From: a virus
Strand: one strand, 5' to 3'
UHGV virus genome: UHGV-1509762
DNA length: 26,449 bases
A program made the position numbers and the translations under genes. The notes beneath the pieces are model-generated. The model searched no databases, was not told where the DNA came from, and saw only the letters and a program-made list of their open reading frames with translations. This document shows, in pieces, positions 3,215 through 26,449 of the stretch; position 1 is the first letter of the stretch, and each line of letters begins with the position of its first letter.

Positions 3215-3438
3215 TGCCGGACAACGTAGATTTTATTCAGGAACAACAGGCTGAATTACTGGAGCGTCAGATTAACGCGGCAAGGGTAAAACATTGCGGT
3301 GCTTCTGCGCTGGTTTGCGAAGAGTGTGACGCGCCAATACCTGCTGCCCGTCGTGCGGCTTATCCGTCAGCCACGCGTTGTGTTTCCTGTCAGTCAGTCT
3401 TTGAAGCAAAAAACAAACATTACCGGAGAACGGCATGA
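3214..3438 (+). CDS. TraR/DksA-family C4 zinc-finger protein (P2 orf82-like)
   Basis: 74 aa with CxxC...CxxC arrangement (CEECDAPIPAARRAAYPSATRCVSCQ) typical of the TraR/DksA zinc finger; AAGGAG RBS at 3202-3207. Confidence 0.7.
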   Translation: MPDNVDFIQEQQAELLERQINAARVKHCGASALVCEECDAPIPAARRAAYPSATRCVSCQSVFEAKNKHYRRTA

Positions 3439-3710: not shown

Positions 3711-5973
3711 AGCCTCCGGGCGTTTTGTCCCTCCGTCAGCATTTGCCGCAGGCACCGGTAAGACGTTTACCGGTGCTTATGCATGGAACGCGCCACGCGA
3801 GGCCGTCGGGCGCGAAAGACCCCTTACACGTGACGAGATGCGTCAGGTGCAAGGTGTTTTATCCACGATTAACCGCCTGCCTTACTTTTTGCGTTCGCTG
3901 TTTACTTCACGCTATGACTACATCCGGCGCAATAAAAGCCCGGTGCACGGGTTTTATTTCCTCACATCCACTTTTCAGCGTCGTTTATGGCCGCGCATTG
4001 AGCGCGTGAATCAGCGCCATGAAATGAACACCGACGCGTCGTTGCTGTTTCTGGCAGAGCGTGACCACTATGCGCGCCTGCCTGGAATGAATGACAAGGA
4101 GCTGAAAAAGTTTGCCGCCCGTATCTCATCGCAGCTTTTCATGATGTATGAGGAACTCTGCGATGCATGGGTTGATGCGCATGGTGAAAAAGAATCGCTG
4201 TTTACGGATGAGGCGCAGGCTCACCTGTATGGTCATGTTGCTGGCGCTGCACGTGCTTTCAATATTTCCCCGCTCTACTGGAAAAAATACAGTAAAGGAC
4301 AGATGACCACGAGGCAGGCATATTCTGCCATTGCCCGTCTGTTTAACGATGAGTGGTGGATTAGTCAGCTTAAAGGCCAGCGTATGCGCTGGCATGAGGC
4401 GTTACTGATTGCTGTCGGGGAGGTCAATAAAGACCGTTCTCCTTATGCCAGTAAACATGCCATTCGTGATGTGCGTGCGCGCCGCCAGGCAAATCTGGAA
4501 TTTCTTAAATCGTGTGACCTTGAAAACAGGGAAACCGGCGAGCGCATCGACCTTATCAGTAAGGTGATGGGCAGTATTTCTAATCCAGAAATTCGCCGGA
4601 TGGAGCTGATGAACACCATTGCCGGTATTGAGCGTTACGCCGCCGCAGAGGGTGATTTGGGGATGTTTATCACGCTGACCGCGCCGTCAAAGTATCACCC
4701 GACACGTCAGGTCGGAAAAGGCGAAAGTAAAACCGTTCAGCTTAATCACGGCTGGAACGATGAGGCATTTAATCCAAAGGATGCGCAGCGTTATCTCTGC
4801 CGTATCTGGAGCCTGATGCGCACGGCATTCAAGGATAATGATTTACAGGTCTACGGTTTGCGTGTCGTCGAGCCACACCACGACGGAACGCCGCACTGGC
4901 ATATGATGCTTTTTTGTCATCCACGCCAGCGTAACCAGATTATCGAAATCATGCGTCGCTATGCGCTCAAAGAGGATGGCGACGAAAGAGGAGCCGCGCG
5001 AAACCGTTTTCAGGAAAAACACCTTAACCGGGGCGGTGCTGCGGGGTATATCGCGAAATACATCTCAAAAAATATCGACGGCTATGCACTGGATGGGCAG
5101 CTCGATAACGATACCGGCAGACCGCTGAAAGATACTGCCGCGGCTGTTACCGCATGGGCGTCAACGTGGCGCATTCCGCAATTTAAAACGGTTGGCCTGC
5201 CGACAATGGGGGCTTACCGTGAACTACGCAAATTGCCTCGCGGCGTCAGCATTGCTGATGAGTTTGACGAGCGCGTCGAGGCTGCACGCGCCGCCGCAGA
5301 CAGTGGTGATTTTGCGCTGTATATCAGCGCGCAGGGTGGGGCAAATGTCCCGCGCGATTGCCAGACTGTCAGGGTTGCCCGTAGCCCGTCGGATGACGTT
5401 AACGAGTACGAGGAAGAAGTCGAGAGAGTGGTCGGCATTTACGCGCCGCATCTCGGCGCGCGTCATATTCATATCACCAGAACGACGGACTGGCGCATTG
5501 TTCCGAAAGTGCCGGTCGTTGAGCCTTTGACTTTAAAAAGCGGCATCGCCGCGCCTCGGAGTCCTGTCAATAACTGTGGAAAACTCACCGGTGGTGATAC
5601 TTCGTTACCGGCTCCCACACCTTCTGAGCACGCCGCAGCAGTGCTTAATCTGGTTGATGACAGTGTTATCGAATGGAGTGACCCGGAGGTCGTGAGGGCG
5701 CTCAGAGGTGCATTAAAACACGGTCGGAGAACGCCAAATCGTCAGCAAAGAAACGGAAGCTCGTTAAAACCACATGAAATTGCACCATCGGCCAGACTGG
5801 CCCGGTCGGAACGAATGCAAATTACCCGTATCCGCGTTGACCTTGCTCAGAACGGTATCAGGCCGCAGCGATGGGAGCTTGAGGCGCTGGCGCGTGGCGC
5901 GACCGTAAATTATGATGGGAAAACGTTTTCATATCCGATTTCTGATGGTTGGGCGGGATTTGAAACAAACTAA
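3700..5973 (+). CDS. A: Rolling-circle replication initiator endonuclease (P2 gpA-like, HUH superfamily)
   Basis: About 760 aa; HUH motif (PHWHMMLF, DNA about 4897-4920) and two-tyrosine active-site motif (GYIAKYISK, DNA about 5044-5070). Start set at the ATG at 3700 (MDVKASGRF, like the P2 A N-terminus as I recall); the track's start at 3658 is a TTG. Confidence 0.92.
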   Translation: MDVKASGRFVPPSAFAAGTGKTFTGAYAWNAPREAVGRERPLTRDEMRQVQGVLSTINRLPYFLRSLFTSRYDYIRRNKSPVHGFYFLTSTFQRRLWPRIERVNQRHEMNTDASLLFLAERDHYARLPGMNDKELKKFAARISSQLFMMYEELCDAWVDAHGEKESLFTDEAQAHLYGHVAGAARAFNISPLYWKKYSKGQMTTRQAYSAIARLFNDEWWISQLKGQRMRWHEALLIAVGEVNKDRSPYASKHAIRDVRARRQANLEFLKSCDLENRETGERIDLISKVMGSISNPEIRRMELMNTIAGIERYAAAEGDLGMFITLTAPSKYHPTRQVGKGESKTVQLNHGWNDEAFNPKDAQRYLCRIWSLMRTAFKDNDLQVYGLRVVEPHHDGTPHWHMMLFCHPRQRNQIIEIMRRYALKEDGDERGAARNRFQEKHLNRGGAAGYIAKYISKNIDGYALDGQLDNDTGRPLKDTAAAVTAWASTWRIPQFKTVGLPTMGAYRELRKLPRGVSIADEFDERVEAARAAADSGDFALYISAQGGANVPRDCQTVRVARSPSDDVNEYEEEVERVVGIYAPHLGARHIHITRTTDWRIVPKVPVVEPLTLKSGIAAPRSPVNNCGKLTGGDTSLPAPTPSEHAAAVLNLVDDSVIEWSDPEVVRALRGALKHGRRTPNRQQRNGSSLKPHEIAPSARLARSERMQITRIRVDLAQNGIRPQRWELEALARGATVNYDGKTFSYPISDGWAGFETN

Positions 5974-5987
5974 CAATAATGATTGAC

Positions 5988-6018
5988 ATGCTTGATTTTG
6001 TATTCACAAATCAAGCAT
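5988..6018. repeat. Perfect 11-bp inverted repeat (ATGCTTGATTT / AAATCAAGCAT, 9-nt spacer) preceded by TTGACA; candidate operator or regulatory hairpin upstream of the methyltransferase
   Basis: Seen directly at 5988-5998 and 6008-6018, with TTGACA at 5983-5988. Lies in the gap between gene A and the methyltransferase start. Confidence 0.6.
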
Positions 6019-6084
6019 CAAGTAAACATCGATGATGAGAAAGAACAATGCTACAATCCCCACAGCATTAGAAGGAGGTTTATC

Positions 6085-7134
6085 TTGATTAAGGTTGTTG
6101 ATTTATTCTGTGGCGCGGGTGGCTTGACTCACGGTCTTCAGAAGTCGGGGCTTAATGTAGTTGCAGGTTATGATATAGATGCAGCCTGTCGATTTGCCTA
6201 TGAGACAAATAATAAATCACTCTTTGTCCAGAAAAGTGTTACAGACATTGAGGACGGCGAATTAGTTAAATATTTCGAAGGAGCGAAGGTTCGAGTTTTG
6301 GCTGGTTGTGCCCCATGCCAACCTTTTTCAAGCTATACCAATAGTGCTAAATTAGGGGTAGTACGTTCAAAAGATAAAAGATGGTCTTTGCTTTATAGCT
6401 TTGCTAAGCAAATTAAATTTGCAAAGCCAGATATTATTACAATGGAAAACGTTCCCCGAGTGGTGAATCATAAGGTTTTTAAGGACTTCATTAAGTCTCT
6501 TAAAAATGATGGCTATTTTGTTTGGTATGGGGTGGTGTTTTGTCCAGACTATGGAATGGCACAAAGTCGTTCAAGATTAGTGTTATTGGCATCAAAATAT
6601 GGAGAAATAGAAATAATTCCACCAACTCATGAGAAGAATGATTATAAAACGGTGCGAGATATAATCGGTAATCTTCCTGAAATTAGTGCCGGTGCTGTTC
6701 ACGCTGGAGATAAACTACATCGCTCTGCATCATTATCTGATATTAATATAAAAAGAATAATGGCATCAAAACCTGGTGGAACATGGCGTGATTGGCCAGA
6801 AGAGCTAAGAGCAAAATGTCATACAAAAGAAAGTGGTTCTACATATACTGCTGTATATGGGAGAATGTGTTGGGATAAACTTGGACCGACAATTACAACT
6901 CAATGTATTGGATATGGGAATGGACGCTTTGGGCACCCTGTCCAAAATAGAGCATTAAGTTTAAGAGAGGCTGCGCTATTACAGTCATTCCCAGAAAAGT
7001 ATGAGTTTTGGCCTGATGATGTAAAAATTGAAATGAGAACAGTTGCGCGTTTAATAGGTAATGCTGTTCCTGTTAGGCTTGGTGAGGTCGTAGGTGAAAC
7101 TATTTTAAAACATTTGTCAGAAATGAATATTTAA
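6085..7134 (+). CDS. DNA (cytosine-5)-methyltransferase
   Basis: C5-MTase motifs in canonical order: motif I LFCGAGG (FxGxGG), motif IV GCAPCQPFS (catalytic PCQ), motif VI ENV (ITMENVPRV), motif VIII QSRSR, motif X GNAVPV. Start set at the TTG at 6085 because a GAAGGAGG RBS lies 6 nt upstream and motif I follows within about 10 residues; the N-terminal extension of the track ORF (from 5983, also TTG) is low-complexity. Confidence 0.9.
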   Translation: MIKVVDLFCGAGGLTHGLQKSGLNVVAGYDIDAACRFAYETNNKSLFVQKSVTDIEDGELVKYFEGAKVRVLAGCAPCQPFSSYTNSAKLGVVRSKDKRWSLLYSFAKQIKFAKPDIITMENVPRVVNHKVFKDFIKSLKNDGYFVWYGVVFCPDYGMAQSRSRLVLLASKYGEIEIIPPTHEKNDYKTVRDIIGNLPEISAGAVHAGDKLHRSASLSDINIKRIMASKPGGTWRDWPEELRAKCHTKESGSTYTAVYGRMCWDKLGPTITTQCIGYGNGRFGHPVQNRALSLREAALLQSFPEKYEFWPDDVKIEMRTVARLIGNAVPVRLGEVVGETILKHLSEMNI

Positions 7135-7146
7135 AACTTATGTCAT

Positions 7147-7170
7147 CCCCCCTGTCAAAAAACAGGGGGG
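7147..7170. terminator. Hairpin between convergent genes (CCCCCCTGT / ACAGGGGGG stem, A-rich loop); likely bidirectional terminator
   Basis: Seen directly: 9-bp GC-rich inverted repeat in the 41-bp gap between the methyltransferase stop (7134) and the stop of the minus-strand ATPase gene (7176). Confidence 0.6.
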
Positions 7171-7175
7171 TATAA

Positions 7176-9134
7176 TTAGATTCCCTCAACTATTTTCATA
7201 ATTCTAGCTGCATCATTCTTTTTGTCTTGATATTCAGCATAGGCTTGTTTTGATTGCACGATTAGGTCATTATATGTCAATATTTTTCCATTGATAGAAA
7301 GTAATTGCATATTTATAAAGTGTTGGTTCTCTTGTAAATATCCAGAGCCAACCAGGAATATTACTTCTATATGCGGTATATTTCCACCTGGGCAATTTTT
7401 AGGGTTATTGGAGAACCATTGTGTCGTTGCCTGTACATATTTATTACCTTGTGCGACTAGGTTCATTATATCTGGGTGCACTTTAGGTCGTTTCATCTCA
7501 ATAATTACATGCTTGCCAGAAACGGTTTTGAAAGCGATATCAATACGAGCACCGCTAGCAGCATCAGGGTTTATCTGTTTTAGTTCCTTGGTCAATGTTT
7601 GCTCCATAACAGATGTGCCTGTGACTCTTTCCCATGAAGGATCCAATAACCATAAATGATCATATAAATACATTTGTACAGCTCTTTCAAGCTGATTTTC
7701 ATCAGTTATTTTTTGGAATTTTTCAATTACTTTAAGGCGTTGCGAAGTAATTTCATAAAACATGCTTGCTTCAATGTCATTGACAGATGCAAATACATCT
7801 TTAAAATTTTCTGATTGAAGGTTGCTTATTTTATCTAATGCATCAAGGTTGTCTTGAATTCTAAGTCTTTCAAAGGCTAATACCGTATTTTTTAATACGG
7901 TTTTTCTTGCTGCTTTTTGTTCTTCCTCATTACCAGAAAAACGGAATGTGTTTACTCGTCCAATTAACTTTTCGGCACTTTCTCTCTCATGTTTTTTGAG
8001 AGAATTCAGCCATTCACTTACTATTGGAGTATTGCTTTTAACTTCATTTACTCCTTTTTCGCGTCTCCATTTATCCCAATCTTTATCGATTAGTTGTAGC
8101 GTTCTTTCCAGAAAACCTTTAAGTACAGGGTATCTTGGATCATTCTGTTGTAGTTTTTGACGAGAAGATGTTGCCATATCAGGCTTTTCGTTATCATCTA
8201 GAAAATCGGCGACTATTTCACCGACCAGATAATTGGTGAATACTTTAGCACTTCCAAATTCTAATAATATGTCCTCCTCAAAAACACGTCCGTGAGAGAT
8301 TACAGTAATGCTGTTGTTAGATATTTCAGGGTCTTTCTTTAACTGTGATGGCTTAACTACACTGCCAATGTACCCACTAACTTTTACATCTTTTCCTTCA
8401 AAGGTAATAGTATTTGGTAATATGTTTTTTTGTGTGATGTTTGTGCAGGATTTTATCCTTTCAGGGTCGGATTCGCCAAATTCCCAAATGAACTCGAGAT
8501 CTGAAAGGAAATCTCTATCTGCCGGTGTAATATCGGTCCCATTAATTTTAACTGTAAAGTTATGGTTGGGGCCAATAATGCTAAATCGACGAGCTATTCG
8601 CTTTCTGAGGTAAGTTTGAGTCCTATCAATGGCTTTTTTTAGTTCAAATAATTTAATTGTAGTGCCGTAAGCAAGATTTTCGGGTATTTCAAGGGAGTCA
8701 GCAATATAGTTTTTTGATTCTTTGATACTTTGCTGTAAATCTTTGACATCTACCTCAAAGGCCTGAGGCTGTTCCCCCTTTTTGTACGAATAAACTTGGA
8801 TTTTATTGGCAAGTGAAAACATGGCAAGCTTACCAATACCTTTTCTGCCCATAACTTGACGTTTTAGATGATCGCTTTTGGCTCTTCCATGTTCCCTGCG
8901 AGCATAACCGACTTTTAGGAACTTATTAATAATGTCATCTTTAGACATGCCATGACCATCATCTTTAATGATGACCTCTCCTTTCTCAACATCAAGTGTA
9001 ATTTCTACATTTTGAGCATCTGCATCCCATGCATTTGATATAATCTCAGTTAGTACCGCGGGAGTATTGGAATAGAGACTCATCCCTAGGTGATTTAGCA
9101 CATTCAAATCAATTTTAATTTCGAAATCTGACAT
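7176..9134 (-). CDS. GHKL-family (MORC/MutL/Hsp90-like) ATPase with a C-terminal PD-(D/E)xK-like nuclease motif; putative ATP-dependent restriction or defence nuclease
   Basis: N-terminus carries the Bergerat-fold motifs: N box EIISNAWDADA (E30, N34, D37), G1 box IKDDGHGM (DxGxG), G2 box GRKGIGK. The C-terminal segment ARIDIAFKTVSGKHVIIEMKRPK has a D ... ExK arrangement (D532, E546, K548; DNA 7491-7541) consistent with a PD-(D/E)xK nuclease core. AAGGAA RBS precedes the ATG at 9134. The gene is AT-rich relative to the phage backbone. Confidence 0.85.
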   Translation of the reverse strand: MSDFEIKIDLNVLNHLGMSLYSNTPAVLTEIISNAWDADAQNVEITLDVEKGEVIIKDDGHGMSKDDIINKFLKVGYARREHGRAKSDHLKRQVMGRKGIGKLAMFSLANKIQVYSYKKGEQPQAFEVDVKDLQQSIKESKNYIADSLEIPENLAYGTTIKLFELKKAIDRTQTYLRKRIARRFSIIGPNHNFTVKINGTDITPADRDFLSDLEFIWEFGESDPERIKSCTNITQKNILPNTITFEGKDVKVSGYIGSVVKPSQLKKDPEISNNSITVISHGRVFEEDILLEFGSAKVFTNYLVGEIVADFLDDNEKPDMATSSRQKLQQNDPRYPVLKGFLERTLQLIDKDWDKWRREKGVNEVKSNTPIVSEWLNSLKKHERESAEKLIGRVNTFRFSGNEEEQKAARKTVLKNTVLAFERLRIQDNLDALDKISNLQSENFKDVFASVNDIEASMFYEITSQRLKVIEKFQKITDENQLERAVQMYLYDHLWLLDPSWERVTGTSVMEQTLTKELKQINPDAASGARIDIAFKTVSGKHVIIEMKRPKVHPDIMNLVAQGNKYVQATTQWFSNNPKNCPGGNIPHIEVIFLVGSGYLQENQHFINMQLLSINGKILTYNDLIVQSKQAYAEYQDKKNDAARIMKIVEGI

Positions 9135-9319
9135 ATAGTCGTTCCTTGCTGAGAGTTCATTTTAGTTTCATGCAATCAATAGGTTAGGCTGAAGATAAAA
9201 CCTTAAGATAACCAAAGCAAGTGTTCATTAGCGGCTTTGTTTCATGACATGATGTGTGTCGCTTTTTGCATGAAACTGCATTTGTTTCTTATATCTGCTC
9301 TTTTTACATACTGCTAGTG

Positions 9320-9341
9320 TTGACATGGCTTTGACATGGCT
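9320..9341. repeat. Perfect tandem duplication TTGACATGGCT x2 near cos
   Basis: Seen directly at 9320-9330 and 9331-9341, about 40 bp from the cos cohesive-end sequence. Function unknown: could be promoter -35-like elements or terminase-binding (cosB-like) repeats. Confidence 0.6.
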
Positions 9342-9377
9342 GTGCAACTGCATTAAAACCGCCCCATGAAGCGGGCG

Positions 9378-9396
9378 GGCGAGGCGGGGAAAGCAC
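9378..9396. other. cos site: P2-type 19-nt cohesive-end sequence GGCGAGGCGGGGAAAGCAC
   Basis: Sequence matches the P2 cohesive end as I recall it. It lies about 170 bp beyond the 3' end of the portal gene Q, the same spacing as in P2. Confidence 0.7.
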
Positions 9397-9565: not shown

Positions 9566-10600
9566 TCAGCCGTTGTCAGTGTCCAGTGAGTAGTTTTTAA
9601 AGCGGATGACCTCCTGGCCGAGCCAGCCGTTTATTTCCCGAATCCTGTCCTGTAACGGGATTAGCTCATTGCGGACAAAGACCTTTGCCACTTTCTCAAT
9701 ATCGCCCAGTGACCCGACGTTCTCCGGCTTGCCACCCATCAACTGAAAGGGGATGCGGTGTGCGTCCAGCAGGTCAGCGGCGCTGGCTTTTTTGATATTA
9801 AAAAAATCGTCCTTCGTCGCCACTTCACTGAGCGGGATAATTTTAATGCCGTCGGCTTTCCCCTGCGGGGCATAGAGAAACAGGTTTTTAAAGTTGTTGC
9901 GGCCTTTCGACTTCACCATGTTTTCGCGAAGCATTTCGATATCGTTGCGATCCTGCACGGCATCGGTAACGTACATGATGTATCCGGCATGTGCGCCGTT
10001 TTCGTAATACTTGCGGCGGAACAGCGTGGCCGACTCATTCAGCCAGGCAGAGTTAAGGGCGCTGAGATATTCCGGCAGGCCGTACAGCTCCTGATTAATA
10101 TCCGGCTCCAGCAGGTGAAACACGGAACCGGGCGTGAAAGGTGTCGGCTCGTTGAAGGACGGCACCCACCAGTAAACATCCTCTTCCACACCACGGCGGG
10201 TATATTTTGCCGGTGAGGTTTCCAGTCTGATGACCTTACCGGTGGTGCTGTAACGCTTTTCCAGAAACGCATTACCGAACACCAGAAAATCCAGCACAAA
10301 GCGGCTGAAATCCTGTTGCGAAAGCCACGGATGCGGGATAAATGTTGAGGCCAGAATATTGCGTTTGACGTAAATCGGTGAGCTGTGATGCACGGCAGCA
10401 CGCAGGCTTTTTGCCAGACCGGTAAAGCTGACCGGCGGCTCATACCATCTGCCGTTACTGATGCATTCGACGTAATCCAGAATGTCACGGCGGTCGAGTA
10501 CCGGCACCGGCTCGCCAAAGGTGAATGCTTCCATTTTCGGGGCGCTGGCGGTGATTGTTTTTGCCGCTGGCTGCGGTGTTTTCCCTTCTTTCTTGCTCAT
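9566..10600 (-). CDS. Q: Portal protein (P2 gpQ-like)
   Basis: 344 aa, same length as P2 Q; N-terminus MSKKEGKTPQPAAK...FTFGEPVPVLDRRDILDYVEC recognisable; ATGA overlap with the stop of P. Confidence 0.92.
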   Translation of the reverse strand: MSKKEGKTPQPAAKTITASAPKMEAFTFGEPVPVLDRRDILDYVECISNGRWYEPPVSFTGLAKSLRAAVHHSSPIYVKRNILASTFIPHPWLSQQDFSRFVLDFLVFGNAFLEKRYSTTGKVIRLETSPAKYTRRGVEEDVYWWVPSFNEPTPFTPGSVFHLLEPDINQELYGLPEYLSALNSAWLNESATLFRRKYYENGAHAGYIMYVTDAVQDRNDIEMLRENMVKSKGRNNFKNLFLYAPQGKADGIKIIPLSEVATKDDFFNIKKASAADLLDAHRIPFQLMGGKPENVGSLGDIEKVAKVFVRNELIPLQDRIREINGWLGQEVIRFKNYSLDTDNG

Positions 10601-21235: not shown

Positions 21236-23995
21236 ATGAGCACGAAATTTAAAACCGTTATCACTACTGCCGGAGCCGCGAAGCTGGCAGCCGCCACTGT
21301 TCCCGGCGGGAAAAAAGTAAACCTGTCTGCAATGGCTGTGGGTGACGGTAATGGCCAATTGCCGGTGCCGGATGCCGGTCAGACGAAACTGGTGCATGAA
21401 GTCTGGCGTCATGCCCTGAATAAAGTCAGTGTGGATAACAAGAATAAAAACTATATCGTGGCTGAACTGGTTGTTCCGCCAGAAGTGGGCGGCTTCTGGA
21501 TGCGTGAGCTTGGTCTGTATGACGATGCCGGAACACTGATTGCGGTATCCAACATGGCAGAAAGCTATAAGCCAGAACTGGCTGAAGGCTCCGGACGTGC
21601 GCAGACCTGCCGCATGGTTATTATTCTCAGCAACGTGGCGTCCGTTGAGCTGAGTATTGATGCCAGCACAGTGATGGCGACGCAGGATTACGTCGATGAC
21701 AAAATCGCAGAGCATGAGCAGTCCCGCCGCCATCCTGACGCCACGCTGACAGAAAAAGGTTTTACTCAGTTAAGCAGTGCAACAAACAGCACCAGTGAAA
21801 AGCAGGCTGCAACGCCAAAGGCAGTAAAAGCAGCCTATGACAATGCTGAGAAACGTCTGCAGAAAGACCAGAACGGTGGCGATATTCCAGATAAGGACGC
21901 TTTTCTGGACAATGTTGGCGTTACCAGCCTGACGTTTATGAAAAACAATGGCGAAATGCCGCTTGATGCTGATCTGAATACATTTGGTCCCGTTAAGGCT
22001 TATCTGGGAATCTGGTCTAAAGCTACCTCAACTAACGCAACACTGGAGAAAAATTTCCCGGAAGATAATGCTGTCGGTGTGCTTGAGGTTTTTGCTGCCG
22101 GCAATTTTGCAGGTACGCAACGCTTCACCACGAGAGACGGCAATGTATACATACGCAGACTCGCCAATAAGTGGAATGGCTCTGATGGTCCGTGGGGCAT
22201 ATGGCGTCACACTCAATCAGCTACCCGCCCTTTGAGTACGACTATAGACCTGAATACGCTTGGAGCCGCCGAACATCTTGGTTTATGGCGTAACAGTAGC
22301 TCGGCTATAGCTTCATATGAACGCAATTATCCAGAGGAAGGCGGCTTTGCTCAGGGGATGCTTGAGATCCTCGAAGGCGGAAATTATGGAAGAACGCAAC
22401 GTTATACCACTCGCCGTGGAAATATGTATGTCCGCTGCCTTGCGGCAAGCTGGGATGCATCAAATCCGCAGTGGGAACCGTGGTTAAGAGTCGGTCATCA
22501 GTCAGAGAGTCGTTATTACGAAGGTGATTTGAATGATGTAACCTCACCAGGTATTTACAGCGTTACAGGTAAAGCGACCAACGGTCCAGTACTGGACGGA
22601 AACGGCGTGACTGTACTCGGCATTCTGGAAGTGTTGAGGCGGTTTGATGGTGTTAATGTATGGCAGCGTTATACAACTGCCGGAACAGGTACAACCCTTA
22701 AAGGCCGCACCTTTGAGCGCGTCTTTACCGGCAGCTCATGGAGCGAATGGCGGGAAGTCTACACCTCGTATTCACTTCCCCTGAATCTGGGTATCGGCGG
22801 TGCTGTGGCAAAGCTCACCAGACTGGACTGGCAGACCTACGATTTTGTGCCGGGCAGTCTGATAACCGTTAGGCTGGATAATATGACCAATATTCCCGAC
22901 GGTATGGACTGGGGCGTCATTGATGGCAACCTGATAAACATCGCAGTTGGTCCGAGTGATGATTCCGGTACGGGGCGCTCAATGCATGTATGGCGCAGCA
23001 CTGTAAGTAAAGCGAACTACCGATTTTTTATGGTGCGTATTTCAGGAAATCCGGGAAGCCGCACGATCACAGCAAGACGAGTACCAATCATTGACGAAGC
23101 CCAGACATGGGGCGCGAAACAGACATTCAGTGCTGGCCTTTCTGGTGAACTGTCCGGCAATGCGGCGACAGCAACAAAGCTGAAAACAGCCCGTAAAATT
23201 AATAACGTTTCGTTTGATGGAACATCAGATATTAACCTGACGCCGAAAAATATTGGTGCATTTGCTTCAGGAAAAACAGGAGACACCGTTGCGAATGATA
23301 AAGCCGTTGGGTGGAACTGGAGTAGCGGAGCCTATAACGCAACTACTGGTGGGGTATCAACGTTAATTCTTCATTTTAATATCGGTGAAGGAAGTTGTCC
23401 CGCCGCCCAGTTCCGCGTTAATTATAAGAACGGCGGTATTTTTTATCGTTCTGCTCGTGACGGTTACGGATTCGAGGCTGACTGGTCTGAGTTTTATACC
23501 ACAACGCGAAAACCTACAGCGGGAGATGTCGGTGCACTGCCGTTATCTGGTGGTCAATTGAATGGTGCTCTGGGTATAGGAACATCCAGTGCTCTTGGCG
23601 GTAATTCGATTGTTTTGGGTGATAATGACACGGGCTTTAAACAAAATGGTGATGGTAATCTGGATGTTTATGCTAATAGCGTCCATGTTATGCGCTTTGT
23701 CTCGGGAAGTATTCAAAGTAATAAAACCATAAATATTACGGGGCGTGTTAATCCCTCGGATTACGGTAACTTTGATTCCCGCTATGTCCGGGATATCCGG
23801 CTTGGTGGTGCTGCCACATACAAACCTGCGAACAATGGCATGACATGGACACATCAGGCACCGTCCGGGTGTGTATATTCCGGCATTATTGTTCAGGATA
23901 CCGGCTCAAACTCTGCCGATAACATTGGTGGTGTATATTACAGACCGGTTCAGAAATACATTAACGGGACATGGTATAACGTGGCGCAGGTATAA
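21236..23995 (+). CDS. H: Tail fibre protein (P2 gpH-like N-terminus with an extended, repeat-containing distal part)
   Basis: 919 aa. The N-terminal 200 or so residues (TVITTAGAAKLAAAT ... ATNSTSEKQAATPKAVKAAYD) resemble P2 H; the rest is longer than P2 H (669 aa) and contains three tandem degenerate repeats of about 90 aa. Confidence 0.9.
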   Translation: MSTKFKTVITTAGAAKLAAATVPGGKKVNLSAMAVGDGNGQLPVPDAGQTKLVHEVWRHALNKVSVDNKNKNYIVAELVVPPEVGGFWMRELGLYDDAGTLIAVSNMAESYKPELAEGSGRAQTCRMVIILSNVASVELSIDASTVMATQDYVDDKIAEHEQSRRHPDATLTEKGFTQLSSATNSTSEKQAATPKAVKAAYDNAEKRLQKDQNGGDIPDKDAFLDNVGVTSLTFMKNNGEMPLDADLNTFGPVKAYLGIWSKATSTNATLEKNFPEDNAVGVLEVFAAGNFAGTQRFTTRDGNVYIRRLANKWNGSDGPWGIWRHTQSATRPLSTTIDLNTLGAAEHLGLWRNSSSAIASYERNYPEEGGFAQGMLEILEGGNYGRTQRYTTRRGNMYVRCLAASWDASNPQWEPWLRVGHQSESRYYEGDLNDVTSPGIYSVTGKATNGPVLDGNGVTVLGILEVLRRFDGVNVWQRYTTAGTGTTLKGRTFERVFTGSSWSEWREVYTSYSLPLNLGIGGAVAKLTRLDWQTYDFVPGSLITVRLDNMTNIPDGMDWGVIDGNLINIAVGPSDDSGTGRSMHVWRSTVSKANYRFFMVRISGNPGSRTITARRVPIIDEAQTWGAKQTFSAGLSGELSGNAATATKLKTARKINNVSFDGTSDINLTPKNIGAFASGKTGDTVANDKAVGWNWSSGAYNATTGGVSTLILHFNIGEGSCPAAQFRVNYKNGGIFYRSARDGYGFEADWSEFYTTTRKPTAGDVGALPLSGGQLNGALGIGTSSALGGNSIVLGDNDTGFKQNGDGNLDVYANSVHVMRFVSGSIQSNKTINITGRVNPSDYGNFDSRYVRDIRLGGAATYKPANNGMTWTHQAPSGCVYSGIIVQDTGSNSADNIGGVYYRPVQKYINGTWYNVAQV

Positions 23996-23998
23996 TTT

Positions 23999-24526
23999 AT
24001 GCAGCATTTAAAAAATATTACGGCGGGTAATCCAAAAACGGTTGAACAATATCAATTGACAAAAGACTTTGATGTTGTCTGGTTTTTTTCAGAAGATGGT
24101 AAGAACTGGTACGAAGAACAAAAGTATTTTGCTGATGACACGCTAAAAATAGCGTACGACAAAGATAATATCATCCGCTATGTGGAAAAGGATGTGACAG
24201 CTATCAGACCGGATGGATTAAGTGTTGTTGAAGTGGCGGATATTACTGCTAACCGACGGGCGGACATTTCAGGGAACTGGATGTTTAAGGACGGCAAAGT
24301 GATTAAACGCATTTATACGGCAGAGGAATTGCTGCAGCAGGCAGAAAACCGGAAAGCCAGACTTCTTGCAGATGCTGAATCCGTGATTTTGCCGCTGGAG
24401 CGCGCGGTCAGACTGAACATGGCAACAGATGAGGAGCGTAGCCGACTGGATGCATGGGAGCGTTACAGCGTTCTGGTCAGTCGTGTGGATCCTGCAAATC
24501 CTGAATGGCCGGAAATGCCGCAATAA
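23999..24526 (+). CDS. G: Tail fibre assembly chaperone (P2 gpG-like)
   Basis: 175 aa immediately downstream of H; same length and position as P2 G. Confidence 0.85.
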
Positions 24527-24747
24527 GTTGTATGATCTCTGGAGTGAGCAAACATATCTATGGCACAGAGTAAAGCCTAATCTGACAGGCCGCTCTGTGT
24601 CTGGAGTAGATTTTAGTAAAGCATTATTTTATTAGTGCAAATTCTAATCAATACATTTTATGTATATGATATCCTGCAGACTTTAATGACTTGGTTTAGG
24701 CTAACCAGATAACACTGAAGGAATATTTTTGATAATTAAGGTGCGGT

Positions 24748-25341
24748 ATGTTTACTAAGCGACGATTAAAAAATATTAACTGGGAGGCAAGTTCAGTGAT
24801 TCTTGCTATGGTTCTCTTTGTTGGAAATATATTTTATACAAATCATCGTGATGATATAACTATGGAGGCTGAGAGGGACAGTATCAGAACAATGTTTGCA
24901 TATGAAATCGCTAATAACCATCGCGCTCTCACTTTTCTTGATAAAACGAGATATATTGGCTTTGACGAAAATTCGGAGCATTTTGTTGGCGAGCCTTTTG
25001 CCATTAATGTCAAATCATTAGGGGGGCCTCGCTTACAGATTGCATTAAACCAGACTGATAAAGTGTTTAAATCCTACTTCAGCGAATTAAGTAAGCTTGA
25101 TAAAGAGGATGTTACTCTTCTTATGGACTATTACCATGAGCAAAGCATCCTGCTGGAGCGTGTAAAATCTACGTTACAGAAGATGAAAAGTGGTAATGAT
25201 ATTAAAGTTGATATTGATGGTTACTTATTAGAAGAACACTTCATGAATGAGCTTAATCTTTCTAATATTTTGCTTAAACGCTATAGCCATTTGTTGTCAC
25301 AACACGCCAAAGAACATAAAACAAAAGATTTACATAATTGA
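24748..25341 (+). CDS. Hypothetical membrane-anchored protein of unknown function (cargo gene at the G-downstream hotspot)
   Basis: 197-aa ORF in a visibly AT-rich island; TAAGGTG RBS just upstream of the ATG; N-terminal basic stretch then one hydrophobic helix (SSVILAMVLFVGNIFY), remainder charged. No family recognised. Confidence 0.6.
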   Translation: MFTKRRLKNINWEASSVILAMVLFVGNIFYTNHRDDITMEAERDSIRTMFAYEIANNHRALTFLDKTRYIGFDENSEHFVGEPFAINVKSLGGPRLQIALNQTDKVFKSYFSELSKLDKEDVTLLMDYYHEQSILLERVKSTLQKMKSGNDIKVDIDGYLLEEHFMNELNLSNILLKRYSHLLSQHAKEHKTKDLHN

Positions 25342-25546
25342 TAATCTGCTAATGGTTATTCATGGGGTAACTATGTTTTATATGTAATCCAACTCAGATG
25401 AATTATTGATTCTGGATAATAACCGCAGAGCGGTATATACCCTGACAGGCAAATGTCCGCTTCTTGTTCAAAGCAGACCGTCAGATTTGATAACTTTTGG
25501 GCTATGTAAATTGTCAGTCGGAAAATGAGTGAGTTCAAATCAGGAC

Positions 25547-25574
25547 AGGCGGGCGAATTGCCCGCCTTTTCTTT
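25547..25574 (+). terminator. Rho-independent terminator (AGGCGGGC / GCCCGCCT stem, T-rich tail)
   Basis: Seen directly: 8-bp GC stem with 5-nt loop (25547-25567) followed by TTTTCTTT; downstream of the 197-aa ORF and just before the IS2 end. Confidence 0.6.
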
Positions 25575-25593
25575 ATCTGTTGTTTCATCCACT

Positions 25594-26449
25594 GGATTTG
25601 CCCCTATATTTCCAGACATCTGTTATCACTTAACCCATTACAAGCCCGCTGCCGCAGATATTCCCGTGGCGAGCGATAACCCAGCGCACTATGCGGATGC
25701 CATTCGTTATAATGCTCGAACGCCTCTGCAAGGTTCTTTGCTGCCGTTAACCCGTCTGGTTTGGGCATGATACTGATGTAGTCACGCTTTATCGTTTTCA
25801 CGAAGCTCTCTGCTATTCCGTTACTCTCCGGACTCCGCACCGCCGTGTTCTTCGGTTCAAGTCCCAACATCCGGGCGAACTGGCGTGTTTCATTAGCCCG
25901 GTAGCATGAACCATTATCCGTCAGCCACTCCAGTGGAGACGACGGAAGATCGTTGCCGAAGCGGCGTTCCACCGCTCCCAGCATGACGTCCTGTACTGTT
26001 TCACTGTTGAAGCCGCCGGTAGTGACCGCCCAGTGCAGTGCCTCACGATCACAGCAGTCCAGCGCGAACGTGACACGCAGTCTCTCTCCGTTATCACAGC
26101 AGAACTCGAACCCGTCAGAGCACCATCGCTGATTGCTTTCTTTCACGGCCACTCTGCCTGTATGTGCCCGTTTCGATGGCGGTACAGCAGGTTTTCGCTC
26201 AAGCAACAGCGCATTCTGGCGCATGATCCGGTAAACACGTTTGGCATTGATCGCAGGCATACCATCAAGTTCTGTTTGTCTGCGAAGCAGCGCCCATACC
26301 CGACGATAACCATACGTGGGCAGCTCTCCGATAACATGGTGTATACGGAGAAGCACATCCGTATCATCAGTGTGACGACTGCGGCGGCCATCCATCCAGT
26401 CATCGGTTCGTCTGAGAATGACGTGCAACTGCGCACGCGACACCCGGAG
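25594..26449 (-). mobile_element. IS2 insertion sequence (IS3 family), partial, inverted orientation, truncated by the window end
   Basis: The terminal sequence TGGATTTGCCCCTATATTTCCAGACATCTGTTATCACTTAA at 25594-25634 is the reverse complement of the IS2 right inverted repeat as I recall it; followed by the IS2 orfB (InsD) coding sequence on the minus strand. Confidence 0.9.
25604..26449 (-). CDS. insD: IS2 transposase OrfB (InsD), 5' end outside the window
   Basis: 279-aa track ORF is recognisable as E. coli IS2 InsD over its whole length ([29 protein letters not shown] ... [33 protein letters not shown]); the true N-terminus and orfA lie beyond 26449. Confidence 0.92.

Follow-up and report, generated by a model that had tools for sequence, protein, structure and literature searches.

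A probable HgiDII/BbrUII-type restriction–modification gene pair as cargo of the gpA–gpQ hotspot in a P2-like prophage

The UHGV virus genome UHGV-1509762 was analyzed as one stretch of 26,449 nt, termed here the window. Next to the cos site of this P2-like prophage is an AT-rich island (positions 5974–9342) that carries two genes only, one for a C5 cytosine DNA methyltransferase (M) and one for a protein of 652 amino acids (R). The island is very probably a two-gene Type II restriction–modification system of the HgiDII/BbrUII family, which the prophage bears as accessory cargo at its gpA–gpQ hotspot. R belongs to this family by its full-length match to the family model, its domains and catalytic residues are identified, and its linkage to M is conserved. 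The system is not new. It is already named, annotated and catalogued at the same locus, i.e., in NF050001, in RefSeq, as paraMORC3, in Table S5A of Rousset et al. (2022; PMC9122126) and in the record of phage PhiR44_1. An earlier note on this DNA had proposed a restriction-like system that discriminates self from non-self by means of a modification enzyme and an ATPase-nuclease. The hotspot position, the nuclease fold and the co-occurrence of the two genes across phyla support that proposal.

The window is a P2-like prophage whose genes are in prophage order; int, C, cox, B and A come first, as taken from the matching phage record, and cos, Q, P, O, N, M and L come next. The upstream flank of the island is gpA (PF05840, E = 1.8e-122), which has its stop at 5973. 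The 19-nt P2 cohesive end, GGCGAGGCGGGGAAAGCAC, has a single occurrence in the window, at 9378–9396, and the portal gene gpQ is found beyond cos on the minus strand (9566–10600). GC content is 0.34–0.39 over positions 6001–9000 and 0.52–0.59 on either flank. The earlier note described ∼3.4 kb of AT-rich DNA that extends from gene A (5973) to cos (9378). The GC contrast agrees with this, but the cargo itself ends at 9342, as identity to P2 and P2-like phages picks up again at 9343 (query position 3370). Both the drop in GC and the flank homology thus delimit the island as 5974–9342, from the gpA stop to a conserved P2/P4 cos block (9343–9396) that includes the cohesive end and forms a boundary outside the system. 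The same cos block is seen in the P4 sequence quoted in Table S2A of Rousset et al. (PMC9122126). That the island holds only M and R is the content found in the window annotation, in the PhiR44_1 record and in RefSeq.

The island is present in 30 of 5,426 complete Escherichia coli genomes, where it is chromosomal, at least 99.9% identical and whole every time. It is also found in phage PhiR44_1 (PV340563; host recorded as E. coli C), whose island DNA is 99.9% identical and whose two genes are annotated "ParaMORC3" and "Dcm protein". No paper on this phage was found in the literature. The gpA–gpQ locus of P2 prophages was established as a defense hotspot by Rousset et al. (2022; PMC9122126), which bears out what the earlier note had said of the A–cos locus; here, too, variable DNA is found between gene A and portal gene Q, adjoining cos. 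The exact pair, WP_000598783 plus WP_001279022, is listed among the P2 hotspot loci in Table S5A of that work. The main text of two P2-hotspot papers does not mention the pair, which appears in Table S5A only, and no record was found of it among the systems cloned and tested by Rousset et al. (2022; PMC9122126). The island resembles P2 old/tin and other gpA–gpQ cargo in its cos-adjacent position and as a prophage-borne accessory defense gene set. P2 Old, however, is an ABC-type ATPase with a TOPRIM nuclease, and its protein and mechanism are unrelated to the M/R pair.

The R gene is on the minus strand (7176–9134). Its product matches the NCBIfam equivalog model NF050001.1, "BbrUII/HgiDII family restriction enzyme", with a score of 751.4 bits (cut-off 550), and R residues 4–651 align to model positions 1–658 of 659. 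R is identical to RefSeq WP_001279022, which carries the same family annotation in E. coli genomes. The earlier note had suggested a comparison with PADLOC, and this gives restriction enzyme models for R (REase_II PDLC03419, E = 2.3e-91, and a second Type II restriction-enzyme model, E = 3e-68) and C5 methyltransferase-type models for M; the PADLOC Shedu models have no match to R. Homologs of R number in the thousands across bacteria and archaea.

The N-terminal part of R, approximately residues 1–170 (8625–9134, minus strand), is a GHKL (Bergerat-fold) ATPase domain, and the HATPase_c_3 model matches residues 26–149 (E = 2.3e-25). The ATPase residues E30, N34, D37, D58xGxG62, G96RKGIGK102 and T158 are invariant in 87 of 87 aligned family members. 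In the predicted structure, this domain is followed by a middle domain of the transducer, S5-like type (∼171–330) and a helical linker of low confidence (∼331–475), which together are encoded at 7710–8624 on the minus strand. An AlphaFold model of full-length R (predicted local distance difference test, pLDDT, 78) matches the N-terminal and middle domains of Hsp90, TRAP1 and GRP94 in Foldseek with E ∼1e-13, over alignments of ∼400–450 columns, in keeping with a GHKL ATPase joined to a transducer domain. Hsp90-family chaperones dominate this search, and it is uninformative on the C-terminus.

The C-terminal domain, approximately residues 476–652 (7179–7709, minus strand), is a PD-(D/E)xK nuclease, probably of the Shedu (DUF4263)/NucS type. 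The last 191 residues were modeled separately (pLDDT 87.4), and the best matches of this model in the PDB are E. coli Shedu SduA structures 8PS5 (E = 8.6e-7, template modeling score 0.56) and 8PS4 (E = 9.9e-6), followed by NucS/EndoMS, the FokI cleavage domain and other PD-(D/E)xK enzymes. At the level of sequence profiles, a search of this domain against the PDB gives a Shedu match only, which is non-significant (E = 0.48). R scores 16.8 bits with Pfam SduA_C, for which the gathering cut-off is 27, and a 68%-identical Proteus ortholog scores 28.1 bits. The nuclease residues E483, D532, E546, K548 and Q562 are, like those of the ATPase, invariant in 87 of 87 family members. The earlier note had read the 652-residue protein as a GHKL/MORC-like ATPase combined with a PD-(D/E)xK-like nuclease and had named structure prediction with Foldseek as a check. 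The HATPase_c_3 match, the invariant residues and the fold search all agree with that reading, and the predicted C-terminal fold is that of a nuclease and not of an unrelated protein.

Other assignments for R were considered and rejected. Matches to MzaB, HtpG and MutL are limited to the Bergerat fold and have scores far under the cut-offs. The WonAB system of the Vibrio cholerae WASA-1 prophage differs in having an ABC ATPase as WonA and a separate small nuclease as WonB.

The methyltransferase gene is on the plus strand, at 6085–7134. The mechanical open reading frame at 5983–7134 has 383 codons for amino acids, but the likely start is the TTG at 6085, six nt after an AGGAGG sequence, which results in a protein of 349 amino acids; this start is also used in public gene calls. 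M matches PF00145 (E = 1.3e-55) and TIGR00675 (129.7 bits, cut-off 100.65), and all of the motifs looked for are found: I (FCGAGG), IV (PCQPFS), VI (ENV), VIII (QSRSR), IX (RALSLRE) and X (GNAVP). The earlier description of a complete C5 methyltransferase with all catalytic motifs is therefore retained as to PF00145 and the six motifs, and is amended as to the start. By BLASTP, M is 99.7% identical to RefSeq WP_000598783 (349 amino acids). One submitter named a member of the 90%-identity cluster of M as M.HgiDII. The best PADLOC matches of M are DrmMII (E = 1.4e-90) and DruM (E = 3.5e-74), and the generic Type II methyltransferase model gives E = 3e-88.

Linkage of M and R was followed in six close relatives with readable flanks and in a distant set of 80 GTDB loci with 34–43% identity in R. 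All six close relatives keep a convergent pair with a C5 methyltransferase of ∼350 amino acids. R is 77% identical in Serratia, 68% in Proteus, 60% in Aeromonas, 59% in Shewanella, 50% in Gallibacterium and 45% in Alcanivorax. The pair is at the same gpA–gpQ position in Serratia and Proteus. In Aeromonas and Shewanella it is in a P2-like prophage, with the repressor on one side and the integrase on the other; in Gallibacterium it separates the lysogeny module from the tail genes, and in Alcanivorax it is in ordinary chromosomal DNA. In Serratia P2-like prophages (loci L090–L093), a HicAB toxin–antitoxin pair is found beside M/R at the hotspot (∼3928–4523), which illustrates the stacking of modules at this locus.

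The 80 distant loci span Proteobacteria, Actinobacteria, Chloroflexota, Bacteroidota, Acidobacteria, Planctomycetota, candidate phyla and archaea. A C5 methyltransferase is found within 6 kb of R in 69 of them, including four (L029, L040, L067 and L073) where the M gene is split, divergent or truncated at an edge. These methyltransferases are mostly orthologs, 43–56% identical to the island M over most of their length, and a few are more divergent. Among the loci with an adjacent M, 57 have both genes in the same direction in the order M→R, separated by a median of 1 nt, and 10 have a convergent pair; a Pfam scan of upstream neighbors shows PF00145 in 35 of the 75 scanned. The remaining 11 loci have no methyltransferase within 6 kb. 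Three of these (L027, L056 and L074) are at contig ends, and about eight others are truly without the gene. The latter have all catalytic residues intact and are scattered in the tree among linked relatives and do not form a separate clade. The earlier note held that its proposal would fail if the two genes never co-occurred elsewhere; the six close relatives and the 69 distant loci show that they do. The M/R pair is a conserved mobile two-gene module. Convergent genes with a strong hairpin shared between them are the typical arrangement in its gamma-proteobacterial clade.

Multiple copies of R are found in some of these genomes. A contig of a metagenome-assembled genome of an uncultured Cenarchaeum sp. 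(OY282369.1; loci L033, L038, L044, L060 and L068) has at least five, and probably seven, R paralogs on one chromosome of this archaeal sponge symbiont. Some are in tandem; they are 73–95% mutually identical with catalytic residues intact, and most have no methyltransferase within 6 kb. Such an expansion is unusual for a restriction enzyme. Three bacterial loci (L017, L019 and L059) have two tandem R paralogs downstream of one methyltransferase.

Several known systems share the architecture of R. R.HgiDII was described as having an N-terminal GHKL domain and an unassigned C-terminal domain (Orlowski and Bujnicki, 2008; PMC2441816). In the same year paraMORC3 was defined as a GHKL domain, an S5 domain and a restriction-endonuclease-fold domain with E-D-ExK, and it was placed in restriction–modification contexts with cytosine methylases, some members being standalone (Iyer, Abhiman and Aravind, 2008; PMC2292703). 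R has this same architecture, with intact ATP-binding motifs in the GHKL domain, an S5/transducer-like middle domain and a C-terminal E-D-ExK domain of the restriction endonuclease fold. The paraMORC3 paper stressed many standalone genes, whereas members of the subfamily sampled here have, as a rule, a methyltransferase partner.

On the side of the characterized restriction–modification enzymes, M.HgiDII has been characterized by experiment as a 5-methylcytosine (m5C) methyltransferase with GTCGAC as its site, and M.BbrUII is homologous to it (PMC5867850). Methylation by M.BbrUII prevents cutting by the associated restriction enzyme, and the BbrUII system is among three restriction–modification systems of Bifidobacterium breve UCC2003 that are said to interfere with transformation (bioRxiv 10.1101/2023.09.16.557782). 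Published descriptions of M.BbrUII conflict: it is given as an N6-adenine methyltransferase in one paper (PMC5829577) and as an m5C enzyme homologous to M.HgiDII in another (PMC5867850). The C5 partners found throughout the R family fit the m5C description (PMC5867850). The island shares with HgiDII of Herpetosiphon and BbrUII of B. breve UCC2003 an R protein that matches the family model end to end and, in the case of R.HgiDII, the N-terminal GHKL domain. The partner C5 methyltransferase has ∼350 amino acids here, and M.HgiDII and M.BbrUII are in the range of 347–415 (PMC5867850). The island differs from these in its host, E. coli, and in its carrier, a P2 prophage hotspot; its genes are convergent, while M→R operons with both genes in one direction prevail in the family. 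An R protein of B. breve or Herpetosiphon was not among the best 120 matches to an actinobacterial R query.

The Shedu systems form the other point of comparison. Shedu homologs with a GHKL domain and an Hsp90-like middle domain have been reported (Gu et al., bioRxiv 10.1101/2023.08.10.552793). One solitary GHKL-DUF4263 protein, VcSduA, defends against phages, and its mutants E27A (ATPase) and K557A (nuclease) both lose defense; its architecture has been equated with paraMORC3 and with Shedu type I-D (Adams et al., 2025; PMC12137116). R has the same domain order, its E30 and K548 are equivalent to E27 and K557 of VcSduA, and the closest structure to its nuclease domain is that of E. coli SduA. 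Differences are that R is below the gathering score of SduA_C and without a PADLOC Shedu match, as given above, and that VcSduA is a single gene without a methyltransferase. A single gene that acts without a modification partner would be expected of a Shedu system, whereas R is tightly linked to a cognate-looking methyltransferase in the island and to a methyltransferase in nearly all relatives.

As a restriction–modification system, the pair would function as follows. M would methylate a cytosine in its recognition site on host and prophage DNA, and R would cut DNA that has unmethylated sites, such as that of an incoming phage or plasmid. R is predicted to be a dimer in which the GHKL ATPase, the transducer domain and the helical linker form an ATP-operated clamp that gates or positions the Shedu/NucS-type nuclease on DNA. 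A dimeric clamp of the MutL/Hsp90/MORC kind is suggested by analogy, because the ATPase motifs of R are invariant and the ATPase mutant of VcSduA loses function. R is in any case not an orthodox small homodimeric endonuclease. We infer that the E. coli system requires ATP and has an anti-phage phenotype. A lysogen would gain a barrier against unmodified foreign DNA and the prophage would gain a stabilizer of the addiction type. The recognition site is probably GTCGAC, as M remains recognizably orthologous, also in the variable region that separates motifs VIII and IX, across a family that is named after GTCGAC enzymes.

A number of points weigh against the assignment of the island to a restriction–modification system of this type. 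The tie to the characterized HgiDII and BbrUII enzymes is made through the name of the NCBIfam model and through names given by similarity, and is to be taken as provisional to that degree. GTCGAC occurs four times in the window, where 7.8 occurrences are expected; this count is uninformative, and palindrome counts in the window do not single out the sequence. No paper was found in the literature that tests methylation, cleavage or phage protection by the E. coli system. The island has no controller protein or other obvious device to delay expression of R on entry into a new cell. In addition, VcSduA, with the same architecture, defends without a linked methyltransferase (PMC12137116), and thus methylation-based discrimination is not the sole possible mode for proteins of this kind.

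This last point raises the question of whether M and R are two neighbors with independent functions, i.e., R a Shedu type I-D immune nuclease similar to VcSduA, which would respond to infection or to features of DNA and be blind to methylation, and M either a phage anti-restriction enzyme or an orphan of the Dcm-like kind, shielding P2 DNA from restriction systems of the host. The closeness of the R nuclease to E. coli SduA, the Proteus ortholog that passes Pfam SduA_C, the standalone paraMORC3 genes noted by Iyer et al. (2008; PMC2292703) and the ∼8 of 80 distant loci without a methyltransferase within 6 kb all point in this direction, as does VcSduA itself, which has this architecture, defends alone and needs both its ATPase and its nuclease (PMC12137116). 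Unrelated functions are not expected to stay so linked, and therefore the M–R linkage counts against independence: it is near-universal across phyla, it is found also in non-phage contexts, and it mostly takes the form of an M→R operon in which the genes abut or overlap (median gap, 1 nt). M is orthologous across the family, with 45–56% identity where R has 35–43%, and the members without a methyltransferase do not constitute a clade of their own. Furthermore, it is the REase_II models of PADLOC and not the Shedu models that match R, and the family is named after two enzymes that are listed as restriction enzymes. Independent functions are accordingly considered quite improbable.

Somewhat less improbable, though still unlikely, is that the same restriction–modification system serves mainly for prophage addiction, where loss of the prophage would lead to loss of methylation and residual enzyme would cut the cured cells in post-segregational killing. 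Type II restriction–modification systems are reportedly established as addiction modules by the work of Kobayashi and colleagues, and this is counted in favor of such a role. The pair is whole, with R never alone, in the 30 E. coli genomes, and it travels with P2-like prophages of several genera in three different prophage positions. Addiction is, however, compatible with defense, and published work documents the locus as a reservoir of systems against phages (PMC9122126). As to M, its PADLOC matches to DrmMII (E = 1.4e-90) and DruM (E = 3.5e-74) might indicate that it comes from a DISARM or Druantia-type system of which the island is a fragment. With the generic Type II methyltransferase model the score is practically equal (E = 3e-88), and C5 models cross-match freely. 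The gene content excludes such a fragment, the likelihood of which is close to nil, as the island consists of M and R and has no DrmA/B/C, Druantia helicase or DUF1998 gene. A Type II restriction–modification system of the HgiDII/BbrUII family thus is the reading preferred here.

The layout of the two genes shows several candidate control elements. M and R are convergent, with stops at 7132–7134 (plus strand) and 7176–7178 (minus strand) and 41 bp between these. A perfect 9-bp G+C hairpin, CCCCCCTGT-N6-ACAGGGGGG, is found between the stops at 7147–7170. Its folding energy is −18.4 kcal/mol (z = −3.3) for the plus strand and −21.6 kcal/mol (z = −3.9) for the minus strand. The arrangement that the earlier note described, i.e., two convergent genes 41 bp apart on a shared hairpin, is thus confirmed by the stops and by the perfect repeat. 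A U-tract is absent on both strands, and therefore the hairpin is not a textbook intrinsic terminator.

Directly after the gpA stop is an 11-nt perfect inverted repeat, ATGCTTGATTT-N9-AAATCAAGCAT, at 5988–6018 on the plus strand, which overlaps a TTGACA hexamer and folds with −13 kcal/mol (z = −2.95). It could form a hairpin at which the early operon ends, or serve the methyltransferase gene as an operator. Further downstream on the same strand, a putative extended −10 promoter element, TGCTACAAT, was read by eye at 6049–6057, and AGGAGG, the probable Shine–Dalgarno sequence of the methyltransferase gene, is at 6073–6078. A consensus promoter scan called no promoter at 6049–6078. No controller or regulator gene is present in the island.

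The region upstream of the R gene (9135–9342, minus strand) has repeat motifs. The motif CATGAAAC / TTCATGCA is found three times, at 9164–9175, 9239–9246 and 9266–9277, and one pair of copies forms a 12-nt inverted repeat with a spacing of 90 nt. Two tandem copies of TTGACATGGCT are at 9320–9341. Similar TTCATGCA repeats are found upstream of the R gene at the Serratia ortholog locus L090. Perhaps the region functions as a control region or operator for R, although this is speculative. An open reading frame for a basic peptide of 41 amino acids (9228–9353, minus strand), hypothetical in PhiR44_1, overlaps the CATGAAAC / TTCATGCA motifs.

The window has a second AT-rich patch at 24501–26443 (GC 0.35–0.37), which follows the tail-fiber genes H (21236–23995) and G (23999–24526). 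Its position is presumably that of the other variable locus of P2, the site of fun(Z). The patch has an orphan open reading frame of 197 amino acids (24748–25341, plus strand) with no Pfam or PADLOC family match, and downstream of it an insertion sequence transposase reading frame with rve and HTH_21 domains (25604–26443, minus strand). The patch may hold an uncharacterized accessory gene.

As a finding, the island adds little, in that it is one more restriction–modification system in a known P2 defense hotspot and is annotated in RefSeq. What value it retains is that of a model, with two genes in 3.4 kb that are native to E. coli and belong to a very large bacterial and archaeal family. It would serve as such for family-wide matters, i.e., the role of the GHKL ATPase in HgiDII-type enzymes and the relation of the methyltransferase-linked to the solitary GHKL-Shedu proteins. 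It is possible, and offered only tentatively, that HgiDII-family "Type II" enzymes are ATP-gated GHKL clamps that drive a Shedu-type nuclease, and not orthodox Mg-only endonucleases. No biochemical work was found in the literature on ATP dependence of any HgiDII-family enzyme. An ATP-gated enzyme is compatible with the invariance of the ATPase residues in 87 of 87 members and with the dead ATPase mutant of VcSduA. If this is correct, restriction in the P2 system would need the ATPase cycle, and self-protection would have two layers, of which the methyltransferase is one. The R family lies where restriction enzymes and Shedu nucleases meet, and one family would then span methylation-based restriction by its methyltransferase-linked members and methylation-independent Shedu immunity by its solitary members such as VcSduA.

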